From positions 64,001-128,000 of the forward strand of contig CAWAWS010000002.1 of assembly GCA_963785725.1 (NCBI GenBank): 64,000 bases of DNA, given 5' to 3'. The notes beneath the pieces were generated by a model. The model did not search any database. It was not told the origin of the DNA and saw only the letters and a list, made by a program, of their open reading frames with translations. Positions 1 through 23,533 of the stretch are shown here, piece by piece (positions within the stretch are counted from its first letter, which is position 1; each line of letters begins with the position of its first letter). This stretch comes from an uncultured delta proteobacterium. Its GTDB lineage: Bacteria; Myxococcota_A; Polyangia; Palsa-1104. The translations under genes and the position numbers were made by a program.

Positions 1-563
1 TTGGCGTCAGCCGCCTTTTTAAGCCACTGAAGCGCTAGCCGCTCATTCCGACGCACGCCTATCCCTCGGTGATAACAGATCGCAACGTTGTATTCAGCCT
101 CAGGATGACCTTCTATCGCAGCACGTCGATACCAGTGGAAAGCCTTTTTTAAATCCACATCGCGACCAATGCCATACTCGAAGCAGCGGCCTATCGCCGT
201 CGCACTGACACAGTCCCCACCGCGAGCCCCCGCTAAGTAGAAGTCCGCGGCTCGCTTCAGATTCTTCTTCCTGCCCTTCCCTCGTTCGTAACAAACGGCC
301 AAGTCATGATTGGCGTCTGCTAGACCGGACTTCGCTGCCTTGGCGAAAAGGTCCGCCGCGATACGGAAGTTGCGCCTCACACCCAACCCGTGAGCGTACC
401 AGTTGCCGAGTGCATAATTCGATTCGGCAATCCCAGCACGCGCAGACTGCCGCAACAGCAGTAATGCTTCGTGAATATCCTCCTTCGTTCGCTCAGTCTT
501 CGCCGCAAGCAGCTTCGCGCTTTGCAACATTGCTAACGCGTCTTTTCGCGTTATCTTTTTCAC
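1..563 (-). CDS. Sel1-like repeat (SLR) protein, 3'-truncated by window edge; candidate immunity protein of the RHS toxin
   Basis: Not in ORF track (no stop in window). Hand translation from GTG at 563: MKKITRKDALAML...AESNYALGNWYAHGLGVRRNFRIAADLFAKAAKSGLADANHDLAVCYERGKGRKKNLKRAADFYLAGARGG...IGRCFEYGIGRDVDLKKAFHWYRRAAIEGHPEAEYNVAICYHRGIGVRRNERLALQWLKKAADA, i.e. four Sel1 repeats; starts 10 bp after the RHS stop. Confidence 0.9.
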   Translation of the reverse strand, partial: MKKITRKDALAMLQSAKLLAAKTERTKEDIHEALLLLRQSARAGIAESNYALGNWYAHGLGVRRNFRIAADLFAKAAKSGLADANHDLAVCYERGKGRKKNLKRAADFYLAGARGGDCVSATAIGRCFEYGIGRDVDLKKAFHWYRRAAIEGHPEAEYNVAICYHRGIGVRRNERLALQWLKKAADA

Positions 564-572
564 AGATACTCT

Positions 573-8327: not shown

Positions 8328-8449
8328 CGTCGAATCTCCACGCGAGCGGACATTTGCGGACTAGTGACAGCGCAAAACGTCGCGTGTTCCTGATTTACAG
8401 GATCCCAATTTCGTATCGAGGCGATCGTGATCACCGCACAACGAGGTTT

Positions 8450-9667
8450 TCACGAAAGTCGCTCGTCGCACTCGTTCTCGACGATTGCTTTAGGGAGCGT
8501 GGATACGCGACCACCACAGCAGTCGAGGCAATCGGGCTGACGAGCTCGCGGCGAGGCGGCGACAGCAGCGTCTCGGGCGAAAGGCCGAGCTCCACTTGCA
8601 TGCGCGCCACGCGATCGCCGTCGATGACGTGCAGCCGCTCGCTTTGACCGAGCGCGATAGCCAGCGCCTCTTGCGTCGGCAGCGCGGGCCAGTCGTTCGT
8701 CCGCGTGTTGCGAGCGGTTCGCGAGCAGCAGCACGGCCACGGCCGGTCGCGGCCGCCTCCGCAACAGGCGCAGCGAGGTCGAGGGATCGCCGGGAAACAG
8801 CGCGCCGAACAGGCCGAGCAAGAGCGCGAGCACGAGCAGCGGCGGGACGCGAGCGTTCGCGCGTGCCATCCGCGTGCGCGGCGCGTCCGCGTCGAGCGTG
8901 ATGACGGCAGGCTGGCTCGGCGTCGTCGGCGCCGCGTCCAAGCGGGCGACGAGCGCGCGCAGCTCGGCCGCGCCCGCGTCGTCGCTGGGCGCCAGTCGTC
9001 GCAGCGCGTCCTCCGCGGCCGCGGTCGTGGCGTAGCGCGCGGCCGGATCGTGCGCCAACAGCGTGCGCGCGATGTCGTCCACGTCGGCGCCGAGCTCCGG
9101 CCGCAAGCGCGAAGGCGCCGCCACCGCGGACTCGCAGATTAGCCGGATGGTCTGCCACTCGTCGTCGCCAAGAAACAGCCGCTGGCCGGTGAGACACTCG
9201 TACAGGACGATGCCGAGCGAGAACTGATCGCTGCGGCTGTCGACCGCCATTCCGCGCGCCTGCTCCGGCGACATTTAGCGCAGCGTGCCTTGCGGAAGCA
9301 GGCCGTGCTCGTTCGTATCGATCGCGTCATCTGGCGGCGTCGGCGCGAGACTATGCGCGACGCCGAAGTCGAGCAGCTTCACCTCGCCCGCTTTCGACAG
9401 CATGACATTCGTCGGATTGACATCGCGGTGGACGAGCTGCAGCGGCTGCCCGGCGCCATCGGTGAGCGCGTGCGCGGAGCCGAGCGCGTCGGCGAGCCGC
9501 GCCGCGATGGCCAGCGCCAGCGACGGCGTCATTGGCGCGCCCGCATCCGCACAGCGCTGCAACAGCTCGCGCAAGGTCAAGCCATCGACGAATTCCAGCG
9601 CCAGGAAATATTCGCCGTCGACTTGCGCGAGCTCGTGGACGCGAACGATCGAAGGATGATGCAGCTG
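8450..9667 (-). pseudogene. Degenerate Hanks-type Ser/Thr protein kinase
   Basis: HPSIVRVHE, HRDVNPTNVM, KLLDFG, GTLR*MSPEQ (TAA at 9275-9277 where Tyr is expected), DQFSLG; no GxGxxG/VAxK N-lobe upstream of ~9667; apparent frameshift near 8690 in the post-TM region. Confidence 0.85.
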
Positions 9668-9773
9668 AAGGGTCCACCTCACGCATCGGACGGGCTGGCG
9701 TCCATCCGCATCTGAGGCATGCGTGAGGCGAACCGAGGCCAGTTGAGGATGCTCGGGGACCGCCGCAGGAAAA

Positions 9774-11492
9774 CTAGCCGGATGCCTCTTCTGTCTCGGG
9801 GGCCCGATTGGTCTCCGCCTGCTGATCCAGTTGCGCCGCGGCCCATTTTTCCTGAGATACGTCATTGGATTGCAGTGCACGCTCCATGGAGAGACTCTCT
9901 TTGTACTCACGGCATTCGGCAGTCATTGTCCAAGACGTCTGACAGCCGATTTTCTCGAGTTCCGCGCGAATTTCCCGAAGTTCGACGCGGAAGAATTCCT
10001 TCCGCGCGTTCACCTTGTTCACTTGCTTGCGCACAAACCGTTTGTGTAGTTGACGTTCAAGCGTCGGCGCGTCATTGCTGCTGATCATCGCATGGACGTC
10101 GAAATCAAAGGGGACGCTTGCATCACCCAACTCGCGGACGCGCTCATTCGGGTCAAGTCGACGGGTGAGCCCAATCTTGTAGACATGCTCCCCGAAGGAG
10201 CCGACATTTGAAATAATGTAAACGTGACCGGCCTTGGTTTGTTGCGCCATCGACAATGCGCGCTGGTTCTTTTCTTCCGCGGCGCGGAGCTTGCCACTTA
10301 GCTCGGCCAGTTGCTGTTCGTATTTCGCCTTTTGCTCGTCAGTAGCCTTGTCAACTTCACGCCTTACTTTCTCCATCGCCTTACGAAGCACCTCTTCTTC
10401 CTTCTCCGCCTCCTTTATCGCGCGTTCGTATTCCTTCTGAGCACGCTCTTCCTCTCGAATGCGCTCCCTCAGGGCGCGCTGCTCCTCTTTTTCTTTCTCT
10501 TTGAGCTCTGTCGCGGCGACGGCCCAGCGCAGCTCATCGAGGCGGACGTTGAGATACTCTGGCGTGATTCGAGCGTTTCGGAATGCAGTCCCGTTGTGGT
10601 TGACGACACTAAAGGCGTCCTTGATCTTCTGCGCGAGTGTTCCGTAGTTGTCGTCACGGACGTCCGCGAGAACCGTGTCGACCTTCCCATTGAAGGCGTC
10701 GAGCACAAATTCGATCGCCGTCGCACGACGATAGGCTTCGGCGTACTCGCACACTGCCGCAGTATGGTCTTTAATCATCTGGCGCATCCGCTCCCGCGCT
10801 AGCTTTAGCCGTTGGCCAGCGTCGGCAAAGCCGAAGTGCTCGGCCAGGTCGTCGAGCACACTATGCGTAGGAACGACATACCGGTCGCCATATCCGTCAA
10901 TGATGTTCTGCATAGCCGCGGCAGTCTGTTCGAGGGCTTTGGCCCTGTGAAGTGCCGCAAATGCGTCGCCCGCGATCTCTTCGGCCCGCTTCTTTGCGAC
11001 TTCGATGATCCGATTTGCCTCGGCACCGGCATTTGCGACCATCGAGTCGGCCTGAAGTTTTGCATTCTGCGCTGCCGTATTCGCGTGCTCGCGTAACGCG
11101 GCGGCTTCAGCCGTCGCCGCTGTGCGCGTGCTCTGTGCCTCCGCAATCAGCGCGGCGAATTGAGATCTGGCGGCCGCAATTGCGGCGTTGGCTCGCTCGC
11201 CAGCGTCGTTAAGCGTCGCAGTCGACTGTGCTGAGGCGCTCGCTGCGACATTCGCCGCACGATGTTCGGCATCCGCAACGAGTTCTGCAGCACGCCGTTC
11301 GGCATCAACTACAGTTTGGTATTTCGCGAGCGAACGTATCTGTGCATCCAGCTCCGAGCTGCGCGTCTCCGCTGCGACGCGCAGCTGTCGTTCGCGTCTC
11401 GCGGCCGCCGATACCTGAGTCGCCTTAAGCGCAATGATGACAGCGACGATGAGCGCTACGATCGCGAGCGCGGCGACGGCCACAACCATCAT
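9774..11492 (-). CDS. Membrane-anchored DUF4041 + GIY-YIG (T5orf172/MUG113) nuclease; SNIPE/PD-lambda-1-like anti-phage protein
   Basis: N-terminal TM helix, long coiled coil, AFNGKVD..., then GHVYIISNVGSFGEHVYKIGLTRRLDPNERVRELGDASVPFDFDVHA...LERQLHKRF...VNKVNARKEFF. Confidence 0.85.
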   Translation of the reverse strand: MMVVAVAALAIVALIVAVIIALKATQVSAAARRERQLRVAAETRSSELDAQIRSLAKYQTVVDAERRAAELVADAEHRAANVAASASAQSTATLNDAGERANAAIAAARSQFAALIAEAQSTRTAATAEAAALREHANTAAQNAKLQADSMVANAGAEANRIIEVAKKRAEEIAGDAFAALHRAKALEQTAAAMQNIIDGYGDRYVVPTHSVLDDLAEHFGFADAGQRLKLARERMRQMIKDHTAAVCEYAEAYRRATAIEFVLDAFNGKVDTVLADVRDDNYGTLAQKIKDAFSVVNHNGTAFRNARITPEYLNVRLDELRWAVAATELKEKEKEEQRALRERIREEERAQKEYERAIKEAEKEEEVLRKAMEKVRREVDKATDEQKAKYEQQLAELSGKLRAAEEKNQRALSMAQQTKAGHVYIISNVGSFGEHVYKIGLTRRLDPNERVRELGDASVPFDFDVHAMISSNDAPTLERQLHKRFVRKQVNKVNARKEFFRVELREIRAELEKIGCQTSWTMTAECREYKESLSMERALQSNDVSQEKWAAAQLDQQAETNRAPETEEASG

Positions 11493-11782
11493 ACTTCCCC
11501 CTGATTCGTCTCAGAACAGAACGGCGGAGCTTTGCTACTTTGATCTTACCTTCGGTGTCGCCGTCGCCGCACGACAAAACTTGGTGTTGGTGGATGTAAG
11601 TGCGTCGCGCACTGCGACGATTCGCCGCATGTTGGTCATCCTCGGCGGCACGCCGGAGATAGGCCGATCTTGTTGCTGGCGCCGTCGAGCGCGCGGAGCT
11701 CGGCTTCGTAGGCGATTGACAGGTCCCGCAAACGAACCTTCGTCGAAGGCGTAGTAATGAAGCGCATGATAGCGTTGAGCCC

Positions 11783-12511
11783 ATGATTAGCCTTGATGGC
11801 AAGTCGGCACTGTTGGGCTACGTGCAGACGCTCGTTCACGTGCATCTCGGCGAAAGCGTCGACGCGTGCATTCGCGCCAGCCGCTTCGCGGCATCACCCG
11901 AGCGAGGCCGTCGTCCTCGTGAGCCGCGCTTCGCATGCGCGAGTGTGATCCATGGATTCGCGGCGCTTGAAGCCGCCACGGCAATGTTCCGATTCGAGTT
12001 ATTCGAGAACACAGAAGGCTTTCACTCATACAAAGGCAACGCTGCCGAACCGCGCGTCGCGAAGCTGCTCGAGGACTGGACGAATCGGCGCTGCTCGCTC
12101 CGGCGGCGCTGCGAGTTTCTCATGGAAGCGCGTGGCGAGAAACTCGATAGCCCGCTTGGGGAGGCCGTAATGGACGTGACCTTACTCCGTAATATGCTTG
12201 CGCACGGCTACGCAATGCCGGGACTCATGCTCTGGGACGATGCAGCGCAGCCGGAGATCGAAGTCGTGCACGACACGTCGAAGTTCGTGCGACTCTCGTT
12301 CTCCAGGCCAGATCAGCTCACCGTCGGCGATGCCCGCACCGCCCTCGAAGTCTTTCTTCGAGCAGCCCATGCCGTCACGCACGCTTTCGGACATGTTCTC
12401 GGCTTTACGAGCTATGAGGCCTACGAAGGGGGGCGCCCTCTGCACATCGGAGGCGGGGACGCCATAGAGCCGGTGGATACGATCCTCGCGGTCGTCGATA
12501 ACGTGAAGTAG
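11783..12511 (+). CDS. Hypothetical protein with HEPN-like motif (putative RNase)
   Basis: 242 aa; helical N-part FAALEA and RNMLAH (RxxxxH) motif; located in defence-like block. Confidence 0.5.
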   Translation: MISLDGKSALLGYVQTLVHVHLGESVDACIRASRFAASPERGRRPREPRFACASVIHGFAALEAATAMFRFELFENTEGFHSYKGNAAEPRVAKLLEDWTNRRCSLRRRCEFLMEARGEKLDSPLGEAVMDVTLLRNMLAHGYAMPGLMLWDDAAQPEIEVVHDTSKFVRLSFSRPDQLTVGDARTALEVFLRAAHAVTHAFGHVLGFTSYEAYEGGRPLHIGGGDAIEPVDTILAVVDNVK

Positions 12512-12612
12512 CACCCCACCGACTGACGGGCTGGCCCGGCGCTGGATAGGGTAGTAATTTCATGGCGATGAGTCGCAGCTGACTGCAGAGCTGCAGGTAG
12601 CCGCGATCTCGG

Positions 12613-12618
12613 TATAAT
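12613..12618 (+). promoter_or_regulatory. Putative sigma70 -10 box for the three-gene operon
   Basis: Perfect TATAAT 30 bp upstream of ATG 12649; -35 is poor. Confidence 0.35.
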
Positions 12619-12648
12619 GCGGAATTCAAGCGATCGGAAGCCAAGCCA

Positions 12649-13305
12649 ATGACAGAACTTTCTCCTCAAATCGACGGCCTGTCCATAGTTCTTGTTGGGT
12701 CGTTCAACCCGCAGATATTTCAACCAGCCTGGTTCGGTAGCGCTGAGTTGATTAGGAAGCAAGAGGCTGAGGCCGCAACTATCGAATTGATTCATCCGGA
12801 AGTGTGTACGTTCAGAACCGATTGGTTTCATTTGGCAGTCACTCGCGAACGATTTGCGATCTCTACCGTCCAACAGAGTGCCTATGAACCCATGCGTGAT
12901 CTCGTGCTCGAAACATTCAAGTTGCTGAAACATACTCCGTTAACGCAGATGGGCATCAACAGGGATCGTCATTTCACAAGTCGTTCGAAGGACGAGTGGC
13001 ATGCGATTGGTCATCGACTTGCGCCGAAAGAGGTCTGGGCTCCGCTCCTAGAAAAGCCTGGCCTCTTATCCCTGGCGATTCAGGGCGAAAGAACCGACGG
13101 AAATAGAGGTAGGACTGTCGTGAAAGTAGAACCTTCTGTGCAGGTGGTTCCCGGCCTCTATGTGAATGTAAATGATCACTTCGATCCGCCGACCGATGAG
13201 ACTCAGACAACCTGTGAAGGATTGATGGGCATCTTGGCGAAGTCTTGGTCTGAGATAATGGTCAGGGCGCAATCCATATCGTCAGCTCTTGCAGTGCTCT
13301 CGTGA
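12649..13305 (+). CDS. Conserved-looking hypothetical protein (possibly TIGR04255-like alpha/beta fold), gene 1 of three-gene operon
   Basis: 218 aa; SIVLVGSFNPQIFQPAWF, LKHTPLTQMGINRDRHF, LYVNVNDHF motifs; overlaps next gene by GTGA. Confidence 0.7.
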   Translation: MTELSPQIDGLSIVLVGSFNPQIFQPAWFGSAELIRKQEAEAATIELIHPEVCTFRTDWFHLAVTRERFAISTVQQSAYEPMRDLVLETFKLLKHTPLTQMGINRDRHFTSRSKDEWHAIGHRLAPKEVWAPLLEKPGLLSLAIQGERTDGNRGRTVVKVEPSVQVVPGLYVNVNDHFDPPTDETQTTCEGLMGILAKSWSEIMVRAQSISSALAVLS

Positions 13306-13892
13306 CGGTTGTGGATAGGTATGCACCGTACCAGGTTCGCGGTACTGGCACCGAGGATAGACCGGTTTTGCCCAGCACGGCGTCGAGCCCCCGCATAACC
13401 GCGAATCCTGTCCTCGTTTACATAGACGAACTGGTAGCACAGCCGGTATCGTCGCCTGCCGAACAAGCCAGTCGGGGAAGCAGAACTAGCTATCGGCCGC
13501 TCAGCGAGAAGCTCAGCCGACATTCGGTCGTCGTTAGTCCGAAGGCTGTTCAACTCGCGCAGGACCGATTTATCTCTCTGCAAAAATGGGAAGGAGTCGT
13601 GACGGCGATCGACGAGCAGACATTTTGGGCTCACCTAATCGACTTGACCCAAGGGGGAGCCGATGAAGAAGCGGAGTTGTTCGTAGACGACGTGACTGAC
13701 GATGATCGTGCACTATTGCAAATTGGCGCGGGATTTTATTGGAACATCGGATATCGCGACAATGCTCACAACGGTAACAGAATCAGGGCATCGGAAATTC
13801 GCTTTAAGCGAGTGCCGCCAGTCAGCGCTCAGGAGTATGATAGCGCATTATCTCGAGCGCGTCACCTCAGTGACCTGCTCGACTGGAAGTAA
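13302..13892 (+). CDS. Hypothetical protein, disordered N-terminus plus small beta-rich C-terminal domain, gene 2 of operon
   Basis: 196 aa; Pro/Ser-rich first half; LQKWEGVVTAIDEQTFWAHLIDL...EEAELFVDDV...LLQIGAGFYWNIGY...SEIRFKR; stop abuts next ATG. Confidence 0.7.
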   Translation: MTVVDRYAPYQVRGTGTEDRPVLPSTASSPRITANPVLVYIDELVAQPVSSPAEQASRGSRTSYRPLSEKLSRHSVVVSPKAVQLAQDRFISLQKWEGVVTAIDEQTFWAHLIDLTQGGADEEAELFVDDVTDDDRALLQIGAGFYWNIGYRDNAHNGNRIRASEIRFKRVPPVSAQEYDSALSRARHLSDLLDWK

Positions 13893-14978
13893 ATGGCGGA
13901 GATTCAGATCTCGGTCTTCGGACCAGGTTACGGCGAGTGCATTCTTTTGGGTCTCGGCGAAGGCTGGATCATTGTAGACTCCTGTCTGAACGAGCAAAAA
14001 CAGGCGGCGGCAATCGACTACCTGCGGTCAATCGGCAGCGATCCTGCTACTGAAGTTCTGCATGTTATCGCCACGCATTGGCATGATGATCATATTGGAG
14101 GACTGGCGGAAGTCGTGCGGGCGTGTCCGTCTGCTCAGTTCTGGTGCTCCGGAGCGCTCAAGCGTGAGGAATTTCTAGCTCTGACTCAGGTTCGACCAGC
14201 CCAGCGGTTGAAGTCCGGGGTGCAAGAATTCAGCGAAATACTGTCTATTCTTGAGACGAGAGCAAATCTCAATCAGCCGAACCATCGACCCCATTTTGCA
14301 TTCTGTGATCGCCGACTTTGGCACCGCCCGGCAACAGCAACAGTTCCTGAATGCGAAATCTTTGCGCTTTCACCATCTGACGACGCGCAGTTAGCTGGCT
14401 ACCGCGAAATTGCCGCTCTTTTGGAACAAACTAAGTTGGTGGGTGCATCCACTAAGATACCTTCTATCAACCCAAACCATGTAGCAGTCGTTCTTTGGAT
14501 TCGAGTGGGCACTGACGTCGCTTTGCTGCTCGGATCCGACCTCGAAGAGACGCGAAATCCGGCTCAGGGTTGGAGTGCAATTCTTGCGTCGAGCGGCAGG
14601 CCCAAGCAGCCCGCGTCTCTTTTTAAAGTTCCCCATCACGGCTCTAGAACCGGACACCTAGACGGTGTTTGGTCGAGTATGTTGACCGCCGAGCCAATTT
14701 CTCTGTTGACGCCATTTGTCCGCGGGAGTGTCAAACTGCCGACGACGAGCGATGCGAATCGAATTTGTTCGCTGACCCCCCACGCCTTTGTTAGTGCACA
14801 ACCGTCCCCGAAAGCCAAAAGGCGTCCTGCTCAGGTTGCGCGAACTATCCAAAATGCCGCGCGCGTTCTCCGGGCGCTTCCATCCATGGGGCAGATCATT
14901 GCTCGACGGAACGGCGACAAGTGGGCAACCGAGCTATCCGGAGGGGCGGTTGCGTTAGCTCAGTTGGCTAAGAAATAA
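13893..14978 (+). CDS. Soluble ComEC/Rec2-type metallo-beta-lactamase-fold hydrolase (putative nuclease), gene 3 of operon
   Basis: GYGECILL, IIVDS, THWHDDHIGG (HxHxDH), LLGSDLE, FKVPHHGS; no TM or competence domain. Confidence 0.85.
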   Translation: MAEIQISVFGPGYGECILLGLGEGWIIVDSCLNEQKQAAAIDYLRSIGSDPATEVLHVIATHWHDDHIGGLAEVVRACPSAQFWCSGALKREEFLALTQVRPAQRLKSGVQEFSEILSILETRANLNQPNHRPHFAFCDRRLWHRPATATVPECEIFALSPSDDAQLAGYREIAALLEQTKLVGASTKIPSINPNHVAVVLWIRVGTDVALLLGSDLEETRNPAQGWSAILASSGRPKQPASLFKVPHHGSRTGHLDGVWSSMLTAEPISLLTPFVRGSVKLPTTSDANRICSLTPHAFVSAQPSPKAKRRPAQVARTIQNAARVLRALPSMGQIIARRNGDKWATELSGGAVALAQLAKK

Positions 14979-15016
14979 CTCACTAGTCAAAGCTCGTTCA
15001 TGAGTGGGATTCAAGG

Positions 15017-15448
15017 ATGCTTCTAAAGCGCATCATCGCGTTGACGGTCTTGACCGCCGCCGGCTGCTTCTCGCCGAAATACGGCGGCGGCGAATTCCAA
15101 TGCGCCGCCGCTCTCCAGACCACGACCGTGACGTTCACGGTTCGGCTCTGGCAGTCGCAAACGAGCATGGCGACCTCCGACCTGCTCTTCGTAGTGCAGG
15201 TACTAGAAGAGTTGCGGGAAGAGCTAGGCCTATCGGAATCGCTCGTCGGTTCGACGCGACCCTTCATTCTGGTCGAAGACGTCGCCGCTCACGTCATCGA
15301 TATCGGCTTCCATATCGAGCTATCCGCGAGCTTTGACGAAATCAAGGCCGCGATGGCTGCGAGAACCAACGAATATTCCGAAATTGATTGGGTCGATAAG
15401 AGCGATATCGATCAGTTTTGCAAAGCGAAGGACGTCCTCCCTGTCTAG
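15017..15448 (+). CDS. Probable chimeric remnant: lipoprotein N-terminus joined to a NUDIX-like fragment
   Basis: Lipobox LTAAGC then FSPKYGGGEFQC; later VLEELREELGL resembles the end of a NUDIX box; composition shifts mid-ORF. Confidence 0.35.
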   Translation: MLLKRIIALTVLTAAGCFSPKYGGGEFQCAAALQTTTVTFTVRLWQSQTSMATSDLLFVVQVLEELREELGLSESLVGSTRPFILVEDVAAHVIDIGFHIELSASFDEIKAAMAARTNEYSEIDWVDKSDIDQFCKAKDVLPV

Positions 15449-15506
15449 TTAGCGCTACTAAAGGGCAACGGCTTAGCGACCGCTCGTTAGCAGAGTTGCC
15501 GCAAGA

Positions 15507-16133
15507 TCACTTCGCAGAGTGACCCGTCGACTGGAATAATTGCGAACGCACAAAGTCCGCCATGATGAGCGAATAGATCGGCTGCATGTACGTCGAGCCC
15601 TTCTTGGCCGTCCTGAAGCAGAGGTCGAGCTGATTCGTCTTCGTCTTCTCGACGATGTCTTCCATGTTCGCGTGGCTCGTGCTCTGCAGCTTAGGGAACG
15701 TCGCTATCGCGAACTGCACCTCGGGCTCGCCATTCTTCACCGACGTCCACGCCGGCCCCCCAGAGTCGGCGCCACAGCCAATGTTACCGTCGGCCTCGCC
15801 CGCTTCAGCCGTCGCCGGAAGATGGTTCTTGAGCCAATCGACAAACGCTTTCCGCTTGTGCGCAGGCTGCGGCGCGAGCTTGAAGTTCACCATGACGACT
15901 TTGCCGTCCGCGACTTCAATCGTCGCCGAATCGAACGGCGCTGACAGCGTCAACGTCTTGTCGTCATCCAGTTTGACACCAGCGCTCGCCAGCGCAGCAC
16001 TGCACGCCTGAAAGGCCGTTCCCGGCAGACAATTGGCAAGCGCCTGCGCCGACTTATTCCCCTCGGCGGCATTCACGATCGTCCCGCCTAATCCGACTAC
16101 AGCAACGATTGTCAGTCTAGCGATCACGGTCAT
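15507..16133 (-). CDS. Secreted hypothetical protein, candidate immunity to the upstream amidase
   Basis: Sec signal (MTVIARLTIVAVVGLGGTIVNA-A), four Cys; overlaps upstream gene by 17 bp. Confidence 0.65.
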   Translation of the reverse strand: MTVIARLTIVAVVGLGGTIVNAAEGNKSAQALANCLPGTAFQACSAALASAGVKLDDDKTLTLSAPFDSATIEVADGKVVMVNFKLAPQPAHKRKAFVDWLKNHLPATAEAGEADGNIGCGADSGGPAWTSVKNGEPEVQFAIATFPKLQSTSHANMEDIVEKTKTNQLDLCFRTAKKGSTYMQPIYSLIMADFVRSQLFQSTGHSAK

Positions 16134-18351
16134 TCCCCTTTTGGTGAGAAGAGCGGTCTTCGGTCTCTTTCATCCATTTGGGCTCGTCTCCGCCCGTGTC
16201 GGGAGCAGCCGCGCCACCAAGCTCGGGCGGTCGGCCCCAACCTTTGAATCCCGAGGTGACCTTACCAGAACCGTCGACGGTAATCTTGTGAACCTTCGAC
16301 GTCACTTGATCCGACGCGTTGCCCTCGACGGTCACGACGGTGACCTCGGTTTCGGTTTTGTGCACGCCGACAATGATGCCGACGTGGCCAGACTTCGCCG
16401 AATGCTCCTGCCAGAAGACGTCGCCAGCGCGGATGTCCAGCTGGCTCGTCGATTTGATAGCCTTGTCGTCGTAGTCCTGCTCTTTCCCGGCTTTTCCTTC
16501 TTGGAAGTCGCCGCCGTACTCTTTGTCTTTCTTGCCGTGCTTCCTCTTCGTGTGCTCGTCACCAGTCATCCGGTAGTAGGCACCGCCTTCGCCCTTCGCC
16601 GCCATCTGCGCCAGCCGATCGGGGACGTCGAGCGAGAACGCCAGGCTCGGCGTCTTGATGCCGGCGCGACGATAGACGTACGTCGCGAAGCTTCCGCACC
16701 ACGGAATGCCCGCGTGCGGATCCACGCCAACTTGCGCGATGTACGTCTCGATCGGCCCCAGCTCCGAGGTCTCGGTGACGCGATGGCCTTTCTTCCCCTT
16801 CGTCTCGGTAAAGGTCGCAATCTTCTGCGCGCCAGCGCGATCGTCGTTGGTGCCACCTTTGGCGCCTTCGACGTGACCTTCGTGCGCGGCCTGCGCTCCC
16901 TGCGCCGTGCGGCCGCCAGAGTCGTCTTTCATGATGTCGTCGATCGAACGCTTGTCGCCGCGATGCAGCTCGTAGTACGCGGCCGCGACGACGCCTTCGG
17001 GCGTCGCGGGAAACACCGGCACGACATGACCGTCGTGAAGAACCTGGTCGCCCGCGCCGAGCGCCTGATTCTTGCCGCCGTCGTGCGCAGCATTGCCCGC
17101 ACCGGCGAGCATCGGAGCACCGGCCGCGCCCGCCGCGTGCGGCGCCTCGGCATTGCCAGGCTTCGCGTTGCGCAGACGATCCATCAAGCCAATGGCTTGC
17201 GACGTCATTCCACCATGCGCTTGCGCGTACGCCGCCAGCTCGCCGACCGCCGCCTCCGGATCGAGCTGTCCCGCTTGAATGCGTTTCTCGAGTTCCGCCG
17301 TCTTCTGCTCTACCGTTTCGCCCGCAGCTGCACTGCTCGCGGGCGCACCTGCTGATCCATTCGCGGCTGCGTTCTTCGGCTGCCCCGCCAAGGATTCCTT
17401 GGACGCGTTTGGATGATGACCGCCATGGCCGTGGCCGTGCCCGGACCCTGCTGGCGCTTCGTGTGCGCTCGTCAGCGTCGCGTTGGCACCGCCCGCACCG
17501 CCACCGGCGGGTTTGGCCGCGCCGCCTTTGACGGCCAGCTCTTGCGCGATTGGCTGCAGCAGCTGCTTGAAAGCGCCGACTACCTGGTCGACGTGCGACT
17601 GCCAATTGGCGTCCTGCTCGCTGAGGAACGCCAGGCCGGCTTTCACAGCAGGGTTGCCTTCGACGAGCGCCGACTTGATCGCACCGTCGGCGTCGAAGAT
17701 ACGTAATCGAGCTTGGTTGACGACTTCCAGTCCGCCGTCCGAGCCGGGCAAAACGTCGGCTGCCAGAACCGGCGTCAACATCTCGTAGGCGTCGGTCAAC
17801 GGCACACGACGAACCGGCGCAGCGTCTTCCTTGTCCGTCTTGCTGGCGGGCGTCTCATCCTCAGCGGCGCCACCGCCAGCCTCACGCGCCTCGTCAGCCT
17901 CGCTCGCCTGCCCAGAAGCAGCCAGGGAGGCTGGGCTAGACGCTGGCTTCGCGCCAGCCGCCGCACCGGAACTCGGCGCCGCATCTTTTTCACCGCTGGC
18001 GGCTTCCTGTGCGCCCTCCCCGCTAGCCTGATCGACGGGAGACTTGGGCGCAGACTCTTCGGCGACTCTCGCCGTCTCCGGCCCGATCTTGCCGTCAGCT
18101 TTCAACCCATGTTCACGCTGCCAAGCGCGAACCGCATTGATCGTGAGCGGGTCGATACCGGTCGCAGCGAGAAACCTCGCCGCGAGATCTGGATGCTGGT
18201 CGCGATTGTATTTGCGTGCCGCGCGTATGGCCCTCAGCCGCTGAATCTGCTGTGGCGTGAACTTGCCGCCGACGAGGTCGCCCTCTTCGCTCGGACCCCG
18301 AGCAGCGTCATCGCCAGTCGACTTCTGCTGACCCTGAAGCCTGTCAGCCAT
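16117..18351 (-). CDS. Peptidoglycan-binding + CHAP-domain amidase (putative antibacterial effector)
   Basis: AVRAWQREHGLKADGKIGPET (PG_binding_1); C-terminal PWCGSFATYVY...GDVF...SGHVGII...TVEGNAS (CHAP Cys/His/Glu); no signal peptide. Confidence 0.8.
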   Translation of the reverse strand: MADRLQGQQKSTGDDAARGPSEEGDLVGGKFTPQQIQRLRAIRAARKYNRDQHPDLAARFLAATGIDPLTINAVRAWQREHGLKADGKIGPETARVAEESAPKSPVDQASGEGAQEAASGEKDAAPSSGAAAGAKPASSPASLAASGQASEADEAREAGGGAAEDETPASKTDKEDAAPVRRVPLTDAYEMLTPVLAADVLPGSDGGLEVVNQARLRIFDADGAIKSALVEGNPAVKAGLAFLSEQDANWQSHVDQVVGAFKQLLQPIAQELAVKGGAAKPAGGGAGGANATLTSAHEAPAGSGHGHGHGGHHPNASKESLAGQPKNAAANGSAGAPASSAAAGETVEQKTAELEKRIQAGQLDPEAAVGELAAYAQAHGGMTSQAIGLMDRLRNAKPGNAEAPHAAGAAGAPMLAGAGNAAHDGGKNQALGAGDQVLHDGHVVPVFPATPEGVVAAAYYELHRGDKRSIDDIMKDDSGGRTAQGAQAAHEGHVEGAKGGTNDDRAGAQKIATFTETKGKKGHRVTETSELGPIETYIAQVGVDPHAGIPWCGSFATYVYRRAGIKTPSLAFSLDVPDRLAQMAAKGEGGAYYRMTGDEHTKRKHGKKDKEYGGDFQEGKAGKEQDYDDKAIKSTSQLDIRAGDVFWQEHSAKSGHVGIIVGVHKTETEVTVVTVEGNASDQVTSKVHKITVDGSGKVTSGFKGWGRPPELGGAAAPDTGGDEPKWMKETEDRSSHQKGNDRDR

Positions 18352-18574
18352 GTCTCGCGCACCTAAGATTCATCACGCGTCGCCCCCTCAATGTTATCGG
18401 CAACGGCCACCAAAAGTTGCGTTTGCGAATGCCATTATCCCCTCTGCGTCCGCTCAACTCCTTCGAATACTCAGACGTAATTCGGAACGGATTTCGTCAA
18501 TAATTCTCGACAAGAATAATTCGCGACCTAATCCCGTGGCGCTGTAATCGCGACGATCCAACTCGATGCGAGCG

Positions 18575-19492
18575 TCAGGCAATGAACTCGACCAAGAGCG
18601 CCCACGGATGCGGTTTCGCGACGCTGCCCTTAGGCTCGATCTGCATGAAACCGCGCCACAATTCACTACCGTGTCGACGAGGGCGGTGAACCTCGTCACA
18701 TTTGGTCTGACCAATCACGAGCACACGCTCAGGTTCGTCGGGAATGTCGTGTGTGGTGATCACACGGATGACGAGGCTGACATCCGTCTGCTGCGTCCAG
18801 GCGGCTTGCAACCGTCGCGTCTGCTCAACCGTCGTGGTGAGGACGGTCAGCGACATCGGGTTTTCGAGCGTCCCGATGTGCCGCAGAATCTCGAAGCGCG
18901 AGCCGTCCTGATGGCGGATTCCGAGGACCAGCCCGTCGGTGTAGCTGAGTCCCCGCGTCGCATGCACGCGCCCGGTTACGCAGAACCGTTCGCCCGCGAC
19001 GCTCGACGGCGACGAGAACACGCGCACCAAATCCGTCGCGCCGAACAATGGAAGCGCACCGTGCTCGGTCTCGATCTGCGGAGCTGCCCCGAGCCGACGC
19101 TCCTCATTGACGTAGGCATCGAGGCTCGAGCGCGGCGGAATGTTCGCGGTCGACTTCGGCATAACGGCGGACGCCGGCGCGAGTTCCTCGACGAGCAGCT
19201 CGCGATAGTCGACATCGAGCGCGGGATGCGACGCGATGCTGCGCACGGTCCGAAGCTGGCTCCATTCGCGCCGTCCCGATTCGAGGTCCATCACCGTCGA
19301 AGGGTCGACACCGACGGCGAACGCCAACGCGCGCACCGATAGCTCGGCGTCCTCGCGCAGCTTCCTCAGCTTTGCGCTGTCGACGCGCAGCCTCTGAACG
19401 CCCGCGGCTTTGCGTCCACGCGCCGTTTTGGTCCGCTTGCCGCTGCGTTTCTTCGTGCTCAAGATGCCCGCATGAAGCCGTAGCAGTTTCAT
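18575..19492 (-). CDS. XRE-family HTH regulator with unknown C-terminal domain
   Basis: KLRKLREDAELSVRALAFAVGVDPSTVMDLESGR; start reassigned to ATG 19492 because the longer ORF overlaps the divergent gene. Confidence 0.8.
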   Translation of the reverse strand: MKLLRLHAGILSTKKRSGKRTKTARGRKAAGVQRLRVDSAKLRKLREDAELSVRALAFAVGVDPSTVMDLESGRREWSQLRTVRSIASHPALDVDYRELLVEELAPASAVMPKSTANIPPRSSLDAYVNEERRLGAAPQIETEHGALPLFGATDLVRVFSSPSSVAGERFCVTGRVHATRGLSYTDGLVLGIRHQDGSRFEILRHIGTLENPMSLTVLTTTVEQTRRLQAAWTQQTDVSLVIRVITTHDIPDEPERVLVIGQTKCDEVHRPRRHGSELWRGFMQIEPKGSVAKPHPWALLVEFIA

Positions 19493-19611
19493 ACAGTTGT
19501 GGCAATTGCACGGTTCACGAACCCGTACAGATCCGTACGCCGATGCCTCCACAGGCACACAGCGAATTTCGCGCGATCGCCTATACCGGAACGACTCCGA
19601 GGAGCGTGCCG

Positions 19612-20223
19612 ATGAGCGATGTCGATCCCAATTCCACGAGTTCCCGAACCTATCCGTTGGCCTTTGACGCGAACGGCGAGCCGCTCGACGTGCCGTCACA
19701 TGCCGTCGCTTGGCGCGTGCGCAAGCTAGCGAAAAAGGCTGGTCGGCCCAAGGTCATCTTCGACGCCGAGACGGGCCGTCCGATGGAGCTACCGCTCGCC
19801 GCCAGTTTCGACGACTTCGCGGCCCACGTCGACGAGCAGGGCCGCTATCGCATCGAAGCCGTCGATGCCCAAGGGCGCTTCATTCCCGGCTGCGTCGCGG
19901 TTACCGAGCTGGCGTTCGGCGAGAAGGACGACGACGAGGTCGAGACGAATCAGAAGCCAGCCGACACGCAGCAGCTCATGCAGCTCGTCGCCGAGCTCGT
20001 GAAGACGAACGCGCGCGTCATGGAAGCGATGGCGTCGGCGTTCGGACAGGTTCGCCCGACGGAACATCAGCAGCCGCAGCCGGTGATCGTCGCGTCGCCC
20101 GAGCATGCGAGCAATCCGATGGAATCAATCACGGCGATCCTGCAGATGCTCAAGGGCTGGAACGACCAGCGGCCGACAGGTGGACCCGCAGTCCTGGCGC
20201 AGAATCCGCAGGCGTCCTCGTAA
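19612..20223 (+). CDS. Hypothetical protein, first gene of the integrase operon
   Basis: GAGGAG RBS before ATG 19612; AWRVRK...GRPKVIF...GRYRIEAVDAQGR beta-rich N-domain, helical C-part. Confidence 0.7.
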   Translation: MSDVDPNSTSSRTYPLAFDANGEPLDVPSHAVAWRVRKLAKKAGRPKVIFDAETGRPMELPLAASFDDFAAHVDEQGRYRIEAVDAQGRFIPGCVAVTELAFGEKDDDEVETNQKPADTQQLMQLVAELVKTNARVMEAMASAFGQVRPTEHQQPQPVIVASPEHASNPMESITAILQMLKGWNDQRPTGGPAVLAQNPQASS

Positions 20224-20226
20224 CTC

Positions 20227-21372
20227 ATGCCGCGTCAGACGCAGCGGGCGGCGAAGAGAACCGCCACGCGTGGACGTCCGCTCAAGCCGTCCCGTCGTGT
20301 CATGCGCCGTCAGCTCGACGACGAGAGAGACGACGACATCGACGAGCAGTCGGATCAGACGAGGAATTCAAGATCAATCGAGGCGGCGCCGTCGACCGCG
20401 GTCGTCGCCAACACAAAGGAGCCTGAGTCGATGCTGGCGCAGCTGGCCGAGAACGAGATCGTGAAGATAGCAACGCCGCTCGTCGGTGCCGCGGGTGGGG
20501 CGCTCGCTATCACCGTCGCCACCGAGCGTTACGGTGTCAAACGCGAGGTCGCCACGTTTGGTGGGGCGGCGCTCGCGTTGGCGGCTGCGCAGAGCGTGAC
20601 GGGCTTCCCGCGCGACCTACTGCAAGCGGCAGCGACGGCCGGCGTCTGCCTCGGCGTCGTCGAGCTGCTGCAAACGCTGCGGCCCTCGTGGCTCTATCGT
20701 CAGCCGGTCGCGCACGAGCCCGAGCATCGGCAAGCCGCGCCGCCGCCCGATGCGATCACGCGCTCTGATTTGCAACAAGCCATGGCCGAGCTGCTGAAAC
20801 GGAATCAGGCGGATCAAGTCGAGCGCGATAAAGCGCAGGCCGCGCAGCTGCAAGAGGTGCAGTCGTTGGTTCGCGATCTCGTGACGCAGCTGCGCGACGC
20901 ACAGAGTGAGGTCCAGCGCCTGCGCGCGGCCGAGGCCGCCTATCTGCACGAACGCGAGGTCGCTGCGGCAGAAGCCGTCATTGCTCGCAATGCCGCCGCA
21001 TACGATGCATGCTCGTTCGGCGCTGACGAGGCCGCGAGCTTCGAAACGCAGGATGATTCGGCGAATGCCACCATCGATGCGGGCATGGGCTCGGCAGACG
21101 AGCCGGCGACGGCGGCGCCGATCGAAGAGACAGCATCGCCGCCGGTCACGACTCCCGATGGCGTGACAATTCCGCCGGACGTCGTCGATCACTTCGGGGC
21201 GATCTACGCGCTGCTCGATGCGGACGAGCGGCAGCGGTTATCGTCGGTCGTGGCGCAGCTGCCCAAGTCGCAGCTGGCCATGGCTGAAGCGCAGCTCATG
21301 CAGATGGACCCGCAAGCCGCGGTCGACTATCTGCGCACGACGCTGTTTCCCTCGCTCGGGTTGCCGTCGTGA
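20227..21372 (+). CDS. Hypothetical membrane-associated coiled-coil protein
   Basis: Three Gly/Ala-rich hydrophobic helices followed by coiled coil and small helical C-domain; 3 bp after upstream stop, GTGA overlap with next gene. Confidence 0.7.
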   Translation: MPRQTQRAAKRTATRGRPLKPSRRVMRRQLDDERDDDIDEQSDQTRNSRSIEAAPSTAVVANTKEPESMLAQLAENEIVKIATPLVGAAGGALAITVATERYGVKREVATFGGAALALAAAQSVTGFPRDLLQAAATAGVCLGVVELLQTLRPSWLYRQPVAHEPEHRQAAPPPDAITRSDLQQAMAELLKRNQADQVERDKAQAAQLQEVQSLVRDLVTQLRDAQSEVQRLRAAEAAYLHEREVAAAEAVIARNAAAYDACSFGADEAASFETQDDSANATIDAGMGSADEPATAAPIEETASPPVTTPDGVTIPPDVVDHFGAIYALLDADERQRLSSVVAQLPKSQLAMAEAQLMQMDPQAAVDYLRTTLFPSLGLPS

Positions 21373-21971
21373 AACAGGAGAGTGCGAAACCGGCCGAAGC
21401 TCGCGCGGACCTGCGCGTCTTGGACGACGCCCAGCTCGTCCGCGCGACAATGTCGCACGACCAGGCCGCGTGGCGCGAGCTCATGCGACGTCACTCGAGT
21501 GCGCTCCGTGAGGCGGCGCGCGAGGCGGGCGATGGTCTCAGCGACGCCGACGCCGATGACGTCGTCGCCGACCTCTGGCTGTCGCTCGTCGAGAACGACA
21601 TGCGGCGACTGCGCACCTTCGATCCGTCGCGTGGCGCGGCGTTGCTGTCGTGGCTGACGATTCGGCTGTCGCAGCTCGCCTTCGACCGCGAGCGTCGTCG
21701 CGAGGCTGAGCCGGAGACCGTCACGCTTGATGACGTGAAGCGCGTGCCCGATCCCGGTCCAGCTCCCGAATCGGCCGACCGGACGCTCCTGCGCGTCGAA
21801 GAGGTCGCCCGTCGCTGGGGACTCGATCGCAAGACGGTCTACGGCATGATCGAGCGCGGCGAGATAACCGCCCGCCGCTGCGGCCGTCTTGTGCGAATAC
21901 CACGTAAGGTGATAGAATTATTTGAGTCGCAAGCCAACGTCGCGCCGGAAAGGCATATCAAATGCCGGTGA
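21369..21971 (+). CDS. Fusion of ECF sigma region-2-like domain and excisionase-type HTH (HTH_17)
   Basis: DDAQLV...DQAAWRELMRRH...DADDVVADLWL...FDPSRGAALLSWL (sigma2) then LLRVEEVARRWGLDRKTVYGMIERGEITARRCGRLVRIP (Xis-like); overlaps integrase by 10 bp. Confidence 0.8.
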   Translation: MKQESAKPAEARADLRVLDDAQLVRATMSHDQAAWRELMRRHSSALREAAREAGDGLSDADADDVVADLWLSLVENDMRRLRTFDPSRGAALLSWLTIRLSQLAFDRERRREAEPETVTLDDVKRVPDPGPAPESADRTLLRVEEVARRWGLDRKTVYGMIERGEITARRCGRLVRIPRKVIELFESQANVAPERHIKCR

Positions 21972-23197
21972 GACGCAATTCACGCAAGAAGTGGATCTAT
22001 CGGACGATCGTCAAGCTGCGGGACGGGAGCAAAGTGCGGATCTTCGGAACGCCCGAACGCAATACGAGGGAGTCGGCCGAGCAGGCCGAGCGCGATCATA
22101 TCGATCGCGTGCAGAATCCCGTTGCGCTGCCCGTCGAGAAAAGGAAGGTGCCAACTTTCGCAGAATGGTTTTGGGGAGCGAACGCGGACGCCAAAGAGCC
22201 GTCGGGCCGATTCTGGCGCGAGTGGGTCATCGCCGAGAAGAACAAGCCGAGCGAGATGGAAGCGAAGAAATCGATATATACGCATCATCTGAAATCGGCT
22301 TTCGGCAATATGCCGTTAGACGATATCGGCGTGGTGTCCATCGCGCAGTTTCGGGCGAAGCTCGTCGAGGCGAAGAAGTCGGGCAAACGCATCAACAACA
22401 TCCTGGCGGTCTTGTCCAAGGCGCTGCGATATGCGGCGGACGCGGGCGAGATTGCGACGGCGCCGAAAGTCGGGCTGCGGAAGTTGGAGCGGCCCGAAAT
22501 CGAGTATTGGGAGTTCGAGGAGTACGCGCGGATTCTCAGTGCGGCCAGGCGCGAGGGCGAAGAGTGGTATGTCGCCGTCTGCTTGGCGGGCGAAGCTGGA
22601 TTGCGCGTCGGCGAGATTAAGGCGCTGCGTTGGGAGCACCTCGACCTCGTGGCTGGGACGCTGACGGTCAGCGAGCAGACGCGGCACGGCATCACCGGGA
22701 CGCCCAAGGGCGGGCGCCGGCGTGTCGTGCCGATGACTGCCACGCTGATCGCGGCGCTCAGGACGCTGTCGGTCGTGCGCGTCGGCTACGTGGCGCGCAA
22801 TCTCGACGGCTCGCAGCTGACCGATGGACAGACGACGCACGCGATCCGGCGCATCATCCGGCGCGCGGGTCTCGCCGAGCGTGGCTGGCACTCACTGCGC
22901 CACAGCTTCGGGACGCACGCGGCGCTGCTGGGGGTGAACCCCTGGCGGCTGCAGGCGTGGATGGGTCACGGTCGGATCGACGAGACCATGATCTACGTCC
23001 ACGTCGCCAGCGTTCACCATCGGCCGCTACCCGACGCGCTTCGTGCCGCTTCAGGCCAGGACGACCCCGATCGTCGGCTCCTGTTTCTGATGGGCCGGCG
23101 AGCGTCCGTGACATGGACGGACGTGGCATCCGATGCCACGCGCGATCGGCGTGGCACCCACGTGGCACCCGACGGAGAAGCGATCGTGCAGCACTAA
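21962..23197 (+). CDS. Tyrosine recombinase / phage-type integrase
   Basis: AGLRVGEI (R), TPKGG (K), HSLRHSF (HxxR), MGH, TMIY (Y); ends 41 bp from the tRNA 3' end. Confidence 0.95.
   Translation: MPVRRNSRKKWIYRTIVKLRDGSKVRIFGTPERNTRESAEQAERDHIDRVQNPVALPVEKRKVPTFAEWFWGANADAKEPSGRFWREWVIAEKNKPSEMEAKKSIYTHHLKSAFGNMPLDDIGVVSIAQFRAKLVEAKKSGKRINNILAVLSKALRYAADAGEIATAPKVGLRKLERPEIEYWEFEEYARILSAARREGEEWYVAVCLAGEAGLRVGEIKALRWEHLDLVAGTLTVSEQTRHGITGTPKGGRRRVVPMTATLIAALRTLSVVRVGYVARNLDGSQLTDGQTTHAIRRIIRRAGLAERGWHSLRHSFGTHAALLGVNPWRLQAWMGHGRIDETMIYVHVASVHHRPLPDALRAASGQDDPDRRLLFLMGRRASVTWTDVASDATRDRRGTHVAPDGEAIVQH
23150..23170 (+). repeat. Direct repeat CGTGGCACCC x2, candidate integrase arm-type sites
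   Basis: cgtggcaccc-a-cgtggcaccc about 70-90 bp from the tRNA 3' end; related palindrome gtggcatccgatgccac just upstream. Confidence 0.45.
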
Positions 23198-23199
23198 AG

Positions 23200-23231
23200 A
23201 AAAAGGCCCTAAACCTGACGGCTTAGGGCCT
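23200..23231 (-). terminator. Intrinsic terminator downstream of tRNA-Gly
   Basis: Minus strand AGGCCCTAA-gccgtcaggt-TTAGGGCCT followed by T-run. Confidence 0.75.
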
Positions 23232-23238
23232 AAATATC

Positions 23239-23313
23239 TGGAGCGGGAGACGGGACTTGAACCCGCGACGTCCACCTTGGCAAGGTGGCACTCTACCACT
23301 GAGTTACTCCCGC
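23239..23313 (-). tRNA. tRNA-Gly (GCC)
   Basis: GCGGGAGTAACTCAGTGGTAGAGTGCCACCTTGCCAAGGTGGACGTCGCGGGTTCAAGTCCCGTCTCCCGCTCCA; cloverleaf, anticodon GCC, encoded CCA. Confidence 0.98.
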
Positions 23314-23345
23314 AAATTGTCAGCGAACTGCTTGGAACGGGTGAA

Positions 23346-23374
23346 GTTCTAGTCCGGGGCCCCTTGGGTGTCAA
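23346..23374 (-). promoter_or_regulatory. sigma70-type promoter of tRNA-Gly
   Basis: TTGACA-17 bp-TAGAAC on minus strand. Confidence 0.65.
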
Positions 23375-23467
23375 GCAATTTTGCCGCGCCTTTTTCCACC
23401 GTTCACACCCTCGCGAATTCACCCCGCCGCGCCCGCTTTCGCCCCCGCGTCCACCGCCAACGCCGCG

Positions 23468-23533
23468 GCGAACGGCCCGCCAATCGAACCCTCCGCCACC
23501 GCGAACGGCCCGCCAATCGAACCGTCCGCCACC
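23468..23533. repeat. 33-bp tandem duplication
   Basis: gcgaacggcccgccaatcgaacc(c/g)tccgccacc twice, one mismatch. Confidence 0.85.

Follow-up and report, generated by a model that had tools for sequence, protein, structure and literature searches.

Introduction

Excisionases (Xis) are known to double as repressors or activators, and their route to RNA polymerase is mostly unclear. Here we describe sigma2-Xis, a protein encoded by an uncultured delta proteobacterium (Myxococcota_A; Polyangia; Palsa-1104), in which region 2 of an extracytoplasmic function (ECF) sigma factor is joined to an excisionase-type winged helix. Its gene lies in a stretch of 64,000 nucleotides (GenBank assembly GCA_963785725.1, contig CAWAWS010000002.1, positions 64,001 to 128,000), called the window throughout, and overlaps a tyrosine integrase gene on an island integrated at a tRNA-Gly gene. 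Full-text literature searches, which did not cover subscription journals, returned no description of a fusion between sigma region 2 and an excisionase. Sigma2-Xis is apparently an undescribed domain combination, real and conserved.

The closest described systems are the winged-helix recombination directionality factors (RDFs), among them Pukovnik/L5 Xis, RdfS of ICEMlSymR7A and the GIsul2 excisionase. Residues 138-191 of sigma2-Xis have the same fold (Z 7.5-8.3), and its gene likewise lies upstream of, and overlaps, a tyrosine integrase gene beside a tRNA attachment (att) site. These RDFs are about 55-100 aa long, whereas sigma2-Xis has 200 aa. Excerpts of the RdfS report describe an N-terminal helix that drives oligomerisation and is needed for excision, and binding of RdfS to attP and to promoters (PMC11963761). 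As far as the same excerpts go, RdfS and sigma2-Xis are alike in having an N-terminal addition to the winged helix (PMC11963761), but in sigma2-Xis the addition is a whole ECF region-2 domain and not one helix.

ECF (group 4) sigma factors, such as Escherichia coli sigmaE, CnrH and a clade of the host phylum, have the region-2 fold and a sequence signature in common with sigma2-Xis, which is predicted to dock on the beta-prime clamp helices. They contain region 4, whereas sigma2-Xis has a non-sigma winged helix instead, at a variable distance from region 2. The paper that re-classified the ECF sigma factors does not contain the terms 'excisionase', 'HTH_17' and 'integrase' in its main text. 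BldC of Streptomyces is an Xis-like protein employed as a transcription regulator; it gave the best fold match to the C-terminal domain, but it is single-domain, chromosomal and without a link to an integrase.

Sigma-like genes also occur beside excisionase genes. In Tn916, orf7 is a sigma-like gene upstream of xis and int in one transcription unit. Excerpts of a published paper report sigma-like genes with a region-4 type helix-turn-helix (HTH) on conjugative transposons, Tn916-like ones among them, alongside xis and int (PMC3158075). The sigma-like protein and Xis are separate in Tn916 and the HTH is of the region-4 type, whereas here region 2 is fused to Xis. AlpA of Pseudomonas aeruginosa is likewise a small prophage-type winged-helix protein; in the excerpts of the two reports on it, this antiterminator recognises a DNA element and then binds RNA polymerase directly (PMC9371919, PMC7969949). 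AlpA has no sigma-2 domain, however, and its family, Phage_AlpA (PF05930), was not among the Pfam matches of sigma2-Xis at E<=1. AlpA contacts polymerase in a different mode.

Results

One protein combines sigma region 2 with an excisionase-type winged helix

The GTG of sigma2-Xis is the first start codon following an in-frame stop, and it overlaps the stop codon of the upstream open reading frame (ORF) by 4 bp (GTGA). The sequence-only reading of the window had proposed that the N-terminal part of the product is ECF sigma region 2, that an Xis/HTH_17 domain replaces region 4, and that the gene overlaps the integrase gene by 10 bp. All three proposals were borne out, and the integrase ORF starts inside the end of sigma2-Xis. 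Pfam matched HTH_17 to residues 140-185 with 40.6 bits (cut-off 27) and Sigma70_r2 to residues 39-112 with a marginal 26.5 bits (cut-off 24), while no region-4 model (Sigma70_r4 or r4_2) matched at E<=1. The NCBIfam model TIGR01764 'excise' scored 40.5 bits (cut-off 28.8). Twelve NCBIfam models for sigma factors, of which 11 are PRK models and one is the superfamily model TIGR02937, matched solely within residues 8-147, all far under their whole-protein cut-offs; TIGR02937 reached 28.5 bits against a cut-off of 42.9, over model positions 2-74 of 165 only. A precomputed Sigma70_r2 match was present in only 5 of the 48 near-full-length homologues described below. As the Pfam score alone is marginal, the assignment of the N-terminal domain relies on its fold and on profile matches to real ECF sigma factors.

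To describe the fold, we modelled the protein with AlphaFold2 from the family alignment of 49 rows. The mean pLDDT was 85.9, with low values only at residues 1-10, in the linker (about 121-139) and in the last ten residues. VIA-align superposed residues 18-117 on region 2 of E. coli sigmaE bound to -10 DNA (4lup) over 91 of 91 residues with an rmsd of 2.2 and a Z of 11.3, although values near 11 for a helical domain fall in the range where VIA-align advises caution. Many further ECF sigma factors ranked after 4lup, and the sigma-2 fold was complete through helix 2.4. The winged helix (residues 138-191) matched BldC (Z 8.9, rmsd 0.9 over 50 residues), Pukovnik Xis of a mycobacteriophage (Z 8.3, rmsd 1.2 over 52) and the GIsul2 excisionase (Z 7.5). 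The RdfS excisionase (8dgl) was also among the Foldseek matches, whose E-values for the whole two-domain model were weak (best 2.3e-3). A profile search against PDB sequences returned the same two classes, with Pukovnik Xis Gp37 (4j2n) and the ECF sigma factor CnrH. The claim of a sigma-2 fold is based on the agreement between sequence profile, fold and full coverage of the target domain.

Because region 4 is absent, sigma2-Xis is not a member of the ECF sigma family. By its winged-helix domain and its context it is of the winged-helix RDF kind, and with 200 aa and an extra domain of about 105 residues it lies outside the small, single-domain format of that class.

The fused protein is conserved

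In a word-indexed search 49 proteins matched at E<=1e-3, and all but one of them were near-full-length. These 48 homologues covered 79-100% of the query at 45-92% identity and were 158-251 aa long. All came from soil-type metagenomes or metagenome-assembled genomes, and those with a name were called 'excisionase family DNA binding protein'. In the family alignment W70, L81 and L96 of the N-terminal part and ten winged-helix residues were invariant. The sigma-2 domain was on average 59% identical to the query and the C-terminal domain 74%; with this identity and the three invariant residues, the sigma-2 domain is not decaying. In addition, a 1464-nt contig from an independent public run covered 21352-22812 with 115 substitutions and no gaps, indicating that the fused frame is intact in a relative about 92% identical. 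The sequence-only reading had named two outcomes that would overturn it, a lack of Sigma70_r2 similarity and homologues and reads with two separate genes. Neither came about: the Sigma70_r2 similarity is present, and the 48 fused homologues and the gap-free contig contradict two separate genes.

Viral contigs contained no relatives when searched with either the family alignment or the wider A2 alignment described below, and tblastn of sigma2-Xis against phage and plasmid collections gave no match. A protein atlas gave leads for sigma2-Xis only below 0.9, to clusters with sigma-2 alone, and nothing usable for the upstream gene orf381. No RNA dataset was among the listed public sequencing runs that carry the region, and all runs listed had small shares.

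Short Xis forms and the origin of the sigma-2 domain

Two other loci, L017 and L019, contained open frames of 88-89 codons, bounded by stops, that encode the same winged helix and tail only. These frames lay directly upstream of integrases 68% and 66% identical to that of the window. An exhaustive search further returned stand-alone forms of 63-91 aa that were 64-76% identical to residues ~130-200. The presence of the short form beside related integrases indicates that the sigma-2 domain is an add-on to an RDF.

We then compared the proteins around this family. Among the best 73 representatives, 21 had a sigma-2-like N-terminus with HTH_17 above the Pfam cut-off (25 including sub-threshold matches) and two had region 4; among the next 77, HTH_17 followed a sigma-2-like N-terminus in two and region 4 was present in 26. 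Judged by these counts, a sigma-2 domain of this type is joined to HTH_17 in the nearer proteins and belongs to ordinary ECF sigma factors in more distant ones. A wider family, A2 (220-255 aa), likewise had HTH_17 and this sigma-2 signature, but its linker was longer and contained an additional helix. Its full-length form was not found in the 401 genomes of the phylum that were searched, where A2-type matches were partial only.

In the same 401 genomes, matches at E<=1e-8 occurred in 70, and those listed outside the source genome covered profile positions ~5-160 or the C-terminal part alone; the best of them were confined to positions ~5-136. We scanned 19 top proteins of other genomes, together with five from the source genome. 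Region 4 was found at E<=1e-4 in 14 of the 19, indicating that those relatives are normal ECF sigma factors. Profile matches to proteins with both region 2 and region 4 had E-values of 1e-15 to 1e-20. The family and its ECF relatives had the signature D-M-x-x-L-R-x-F-x-P-x-R-G...S-W in common, as well as an E/R-P segment after the domain; the motif E-P-x-x-V-x-L at that place was kept in the family, in A2 and in the sister ECF clade. The simplest history suggested by these likenesses is that an ECF sigma factor of the host group supplied the Xis of an integrative element with region 2 and with the beginning of the linker.

Three side observations concern these domains. The motif K-T-V-Y occurs in the recognition helix of region 4 in the sister ECF clade and also in the HTH_17 helix of the family (query residues 140-165), which may be chance between two HTH motifs or a trace of common descent. 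In cluster P0064 a sigma-2 domain runs straight into an integrase catalytic domain, and in P0059 into an arm-binding-like integrase N-terminus, both without a winged helix. We considered P0064 and P0059 as evidence that sigma-2 acts directly with the integrase and rejected them, as they are single clusters and may be deletion or frameshift products.

Sigma2-Xis precedes an integrase gene at all loci that could be judged

At each of the nine loci where DNA beyond sigma2-Xis is available (the window, element A in L034/L006, L007, L001, L002, L012, L013, L014 and L016), the gene is followed by an integrase gene. A tenth, L015, stops 60 nt past the gene, too early to judge. With the window proteins as tblastn queries, the integrase started at the end of sigma2-Xis in L001, L002, L006/L034, L012, L013, L014 and L016; both genes of L002 were in several frame pieces. 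Homologues of orf381 lay upstream of the gene in L013, L014 and L015.

The source genome contained three sigma2-Xis modules: that of the window, one in element A and one on contig C20. Element A (L034 16520-19452; C2:60520-63452) abuts the left att copy of the island and consists of a cI-like gene, a sigma2-Xis paralogue of 204 aa (HTH_17 48.1 bits) and an integrase 58% identical to that of the window. Element A and the island are two related elements in tandem at one tRNA-Gly site; a left boundary of element A was not found. On contig C20 (L007, G000:C20:1-3139), a membrane protein similar to orf381 is followed by a sigma-2 protein and then by a different tyrosine integrase (34.5 bits). This sigma-2 protein was 40% identical over the sigma-2 domain, and its divergent winged helix was undetected by Pfam.

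The sigma-2 domain is predicted to dock on the beta-prime clamp

We modelled residues 1-130, with the family alignment, in complex with part (residues 30-140) of the beta-prime fragment encoded by this genome, which contains the clamp coiled coil. The docking score was 0.78 (median of three runs), compared with 0.13 for the best of three controls. Of 157 solved complexes 116 attained this mark, as did 2 of 215 mismatched pairs. The runs shared at least 89% of contacts, and the pLDDT of the partner was at least 77. The predicted contacts involved helices 27-39 and 58-75 (the equivalents of regions 2.1 and 2.2), segment 115-123 and, on the beta-prime side, the two helices of the coiled coil.

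Conservation across the family was lowest (0.42) in the linker and in the second half of helix 2.4. The spacing from W95-L96 to the winged helix ranged from 21 to 50 residues and was 21-26 in 6 of 49 members; spacers this short are a poor fit with a sigma factor spanning the -10 and -35 elements.

The island and its boundaries

The coordinates of all features are given in Table 1. A second exact copy of the 27-bp att core lies at L034 19426-19452, 574 bp before the window, and only these two copies occur within C2:44001-128000; the pair bounds the island of 23.8 kb. Contigs of related elements from other runs follow the end of the integrase gene and the core, then diverge at 23263-23269; this coincides with the end of the repeat. 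The GC content at third codon positions was lower in the island than in its flank. Relatives of the integrase in phages were only distant (at most 27% identity).

Four closely packed genes (orf283, orf381, sigma2-Xis and the integrase gene) form an operon in which sigma2-Xis is third; the successive gaps are +3, -4 and -10 bp. The operon diverges from the cI-like HTH_31 gene and contains no further Xis candidate. A scan of 18300-23500 for sigma-70-type promoters gave 0 sites. The last three codons of the tail double as the first integrase codons, which partly explains the conservation of the tail. All three exact CGTGGCAYCC matches of the window sit inside the 3' end of the integrase gene, and the other arm has two near-copies at a distance of 11 bp (L034 19590 and 19601; region 19590-19610). 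Because the repeat occurs in both arms, with 11-bp spacing, we read its copies as candidate arm-type integrase sites and not as Xis sites.

The cargo includes a 2584-aa YD-shell/teneurin-like protein, a split Ser/Thr kinase, a DUF4041-T5orf172 protein, a metallo-beta-lactamase-fold protein and a 744-aa peptidoglycan-binding protein. The 2584-aa ORF (573-8327, minus strand) is the largest and has a teneurin-type TTR domain and a YD-shell (Rhs-like) region. The kinase domain is split over 8450..9274 and 9275..9910 (minus strand), either a broken gene or an assembly frameshift. The protein encoded at 9774-11492 (minus strand) combines DUF4041 with T5orf172/MUG113 (GIY-YIG-like) and has a strong match to PHROG 1847; proteins of this type are frequent on mobile elements and in defence islands.

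Table 1. Features of sigma2-Xis and its island, in window coordinates (a dot marks features without strand)
Feature	Position	Strand	Remarks
sigma2-Xis gene	21369..21971	+	200 aa, GTG start
ECF sigma region-2 domain, residues 13-118	21405..21722	+	Pfam, sigma models, fold, nearest non-fused relatives
Inter-domain linker, residues 119-137 (~20 aa)	21723..21779	+	Low pLDDT; length varies across the family
Excisionase-type winged helix-turn-helix, residues 138-191	21780..21941	+	HTH_17, TIGR01764, fold matches
Conserved C-terminal tail, residues 186-200 (F-E-S-Q-A-S-V-x-P-E-R...C-R)	21924..21968	+	
Tyrosine integrase, 411 aa	21962..23197	+	Phage_integrase 86.9 bits, Phage_int_SAM_3, phrog_1
orf381, function unassigned	20227..21372	+	Hydrophobic segments, coiled-coil-like stretch; conserved upstream partner
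orf283, first operon gene	19372..20223	+	True start probably near 19615; homologue in L015
cI-like HTH_31 repressor candidate, divergent	18575..19699	-	Homologues in element A and L002
CGTGGCAYCC repeat cluster	23122..23170	.	Exact direct copies at 23122, 23150 and 23161; inverted 1-mismatch copy at 23131-23140
Hairpin and T-run, putative tRNA terminator supplied by the island	23204..23231	-	
tRNA-Gly (GCC), integration target	23239..23313	-	42 bp beyond the integrase stop
27-bp att core, 3' end of tRNA-Gly	23239..23265	.	Exact repeat and divergence point of related contigs
Island body, 23.8 kb in total	1..23265	.	Left end 574 bp before the window start

Discussion

The reading that we favour, and hold to be evenly poised between right and wrong, is that sigma2-Xis is an excisionase that also docks on RNA polymerase and thereby links excision with transcription. 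Its winged helix and tail would act as the RDF of the 23.8-kb island, binding an att arm and driving excision together with the overlapping tyrosine integrase. The N-terminal region 2, derived from a host-phylum sigma clade, would retain its surface for the beta-prime clamp helices, and the protein would occupy the sigma site of the core enzyme. Polymerase would then be recruited to, or held at, Xis-bound DNA, or host sigma factors would be displaced, coupling excision to transcription. The data establish the domain architecture and its conservation, the order of the genes and the limits of the island; context and homology suggest the RDF activity, one structure prediction points to polymerase binding, and the outcome of that binding is speculative. 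In lambda the Xis tail contacts the integrase, and by analogy the part of the sigma2-Xis tail that is not shared with integrase codons may do the same. The sequence-only reading had offered a protein that links excision to transcription as one of two possibilities. Its excision half is well backed by the gene order at nine of nine loci and by the short Xis forms, while for its transcription half the evidence is the predicted beta-prime fit.

Several observations weigh against this reading. Sigma-2 and the clamp helices are a solved textbook pair, and the passed docking may therefore stem from resemblance to solved complexes, not from retained binding. The interface residues were no more conserved than the rest of the domain (0.60 versus 0.64; one-sided Mann-Whitney p = 0.75). 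In the family, a small residue takes the place of the glutamine in D-x-x-Q-E/D-x-F, the motif normal for region 2.2. The Pfam sigma-2 score is marginal, and most homologues fall under the Pfam threshold. Xis-specific binding sites were not identified, the repeats that were found resembling integrase arm sites, and the island contained no recognisable phage structural or conjugation genes. Finally, an insertion of 2 nt behind 21682 in a single contig of low depth (3.47) would break the frame in that variant.

This last point, together with frame errors elsewhere in the assembly, would fit an artefact in which an assembly frameshift or a missed stop has merged two genes. The rpoC gene of the assembly (G000:C6:189097-193165; L035, L036) is in at least five frame pieces, with two TGA codons inside one match. 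Given such indel errors, the homologues outweigh the assembly itself as evidence for the fusion, and broken single genes need caution. An artefact is practically refuted by the 48 near-full-length homologues from many contigs and sources, by the fused paralogues within the same genome and by the independent contig that crosses the gene without gaps. A doubtful though possible account is a plain excisionase whose sigma-2 domain stays off the polymerase and serves oligomerisation, integrase contact or an anti-sigma-like restraint of excision. The lost glutamine and the interface residues without extra conservation fit this account. So does RdfS, whose N-terminal addition, in the excerpts of its report, acts via oligomerisation and is essential for excision (PMC11963761). 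A membrane-type orf381 is moreover translationally coupled upstream in the window, L013, L014 and L015, with a similar protein in L007, but orf381 has no recognisable anti-sigma domain. The full sigma-2 fold, with a signature in common with working ECF sigma factors, and a docking model that passes its controls also speak against it. It is very unlikely, in our judgement, that the protein does no more than regulate transcription, acting on the integrase operon as an AlpA-like activator or antiterminator, with the RDF located elsewhere or unneeded. PHROG 66 is indeed named 'excisionase and transcriptional regulator', and excerpts of the AlpA reports describe proteins of that type that bind polymerase and switch on prophage or cell-death genes (PMC9371919, PMC7969949). 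However, PF05930 was not matched, the C-terminal fold and sequence matches include the proven excisionases Pukovnik Xis, RdfS and GIsul2 Xis, and the operon has no other Xis candidate.

Two further accounts give the protein a sigma function. We think it unlikely that sigma2-Xis is a genuine alternative sigma factor, with sigma-2 binding core polymerase and melting the -10 element, the winged helix reading an upstream element, and a secondary or absent role in excision. The complete fold through helix 2.4, the real ECF sigma factors that are its nearest non-fused relatives, the E-P-x-x-V-x-L motif conserved in the family, in A2 and in the sister clade, and the predicted docking (0.78 versus 0.13, with the textbook-pair caveat) all argue for it. 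Against these stand the absence of region 4, and with it of the known beta-flap contact, and a domain spacing of 21-50 residues (21-26 in six members) that is hard to fit to a fixed -10/-35 geometry. The poor conservation of the second half of helix 2.4 and of the linker, the lack of any identified promoter motif, with an empty sigma-70 scan of the operon region, and natural short forms that occupy the same place beside related integrases without sigma-2 also speak against it. The interface residues without extra conservation and the small residue in place of the region-2.2 glutamine likewise count against a full sigma role. The other possibility raised by the sequence-only reading, a hybrid sigma factor with new upstream specificity, has no support apart from the predicted beta-prime docking: region 4 is missing, the spacing varies, and the linker and the second half of helix 2.4 are weakly conserved. 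Likewise improbable is an RDF that is at the same time a sigma subunit, in which sigma-2 would place the protein in the sigma site of core polymerase, the Xis winged helix would stand in for region 4 and the same molecule would bend the att arm and start transcription. Such initiation might, speculatively, take place across newly joined attP.

For the elements that carry it, sigma2-Xis represents the polymerase-docking module of a sigma factor built into an excisionase, conserved across dozens of soil-bacterial elements with at least two integrase types. If the excisionase does dock on polymerase, it would give an integrated element a simple route to time its excision with its own transcription, and region 2 would be reusable outside sigma factors. 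The short Xis and sigma2-Xis forms beside integrases 66-68% identical would then be natural pairs with and without the module. If the protein were a sigma subunit as well, it would be a new class of the sigma-70 family with a non-sigma DNA-reading head, and would form a direct mechanical link from site-specific recombination to transcription initiation.

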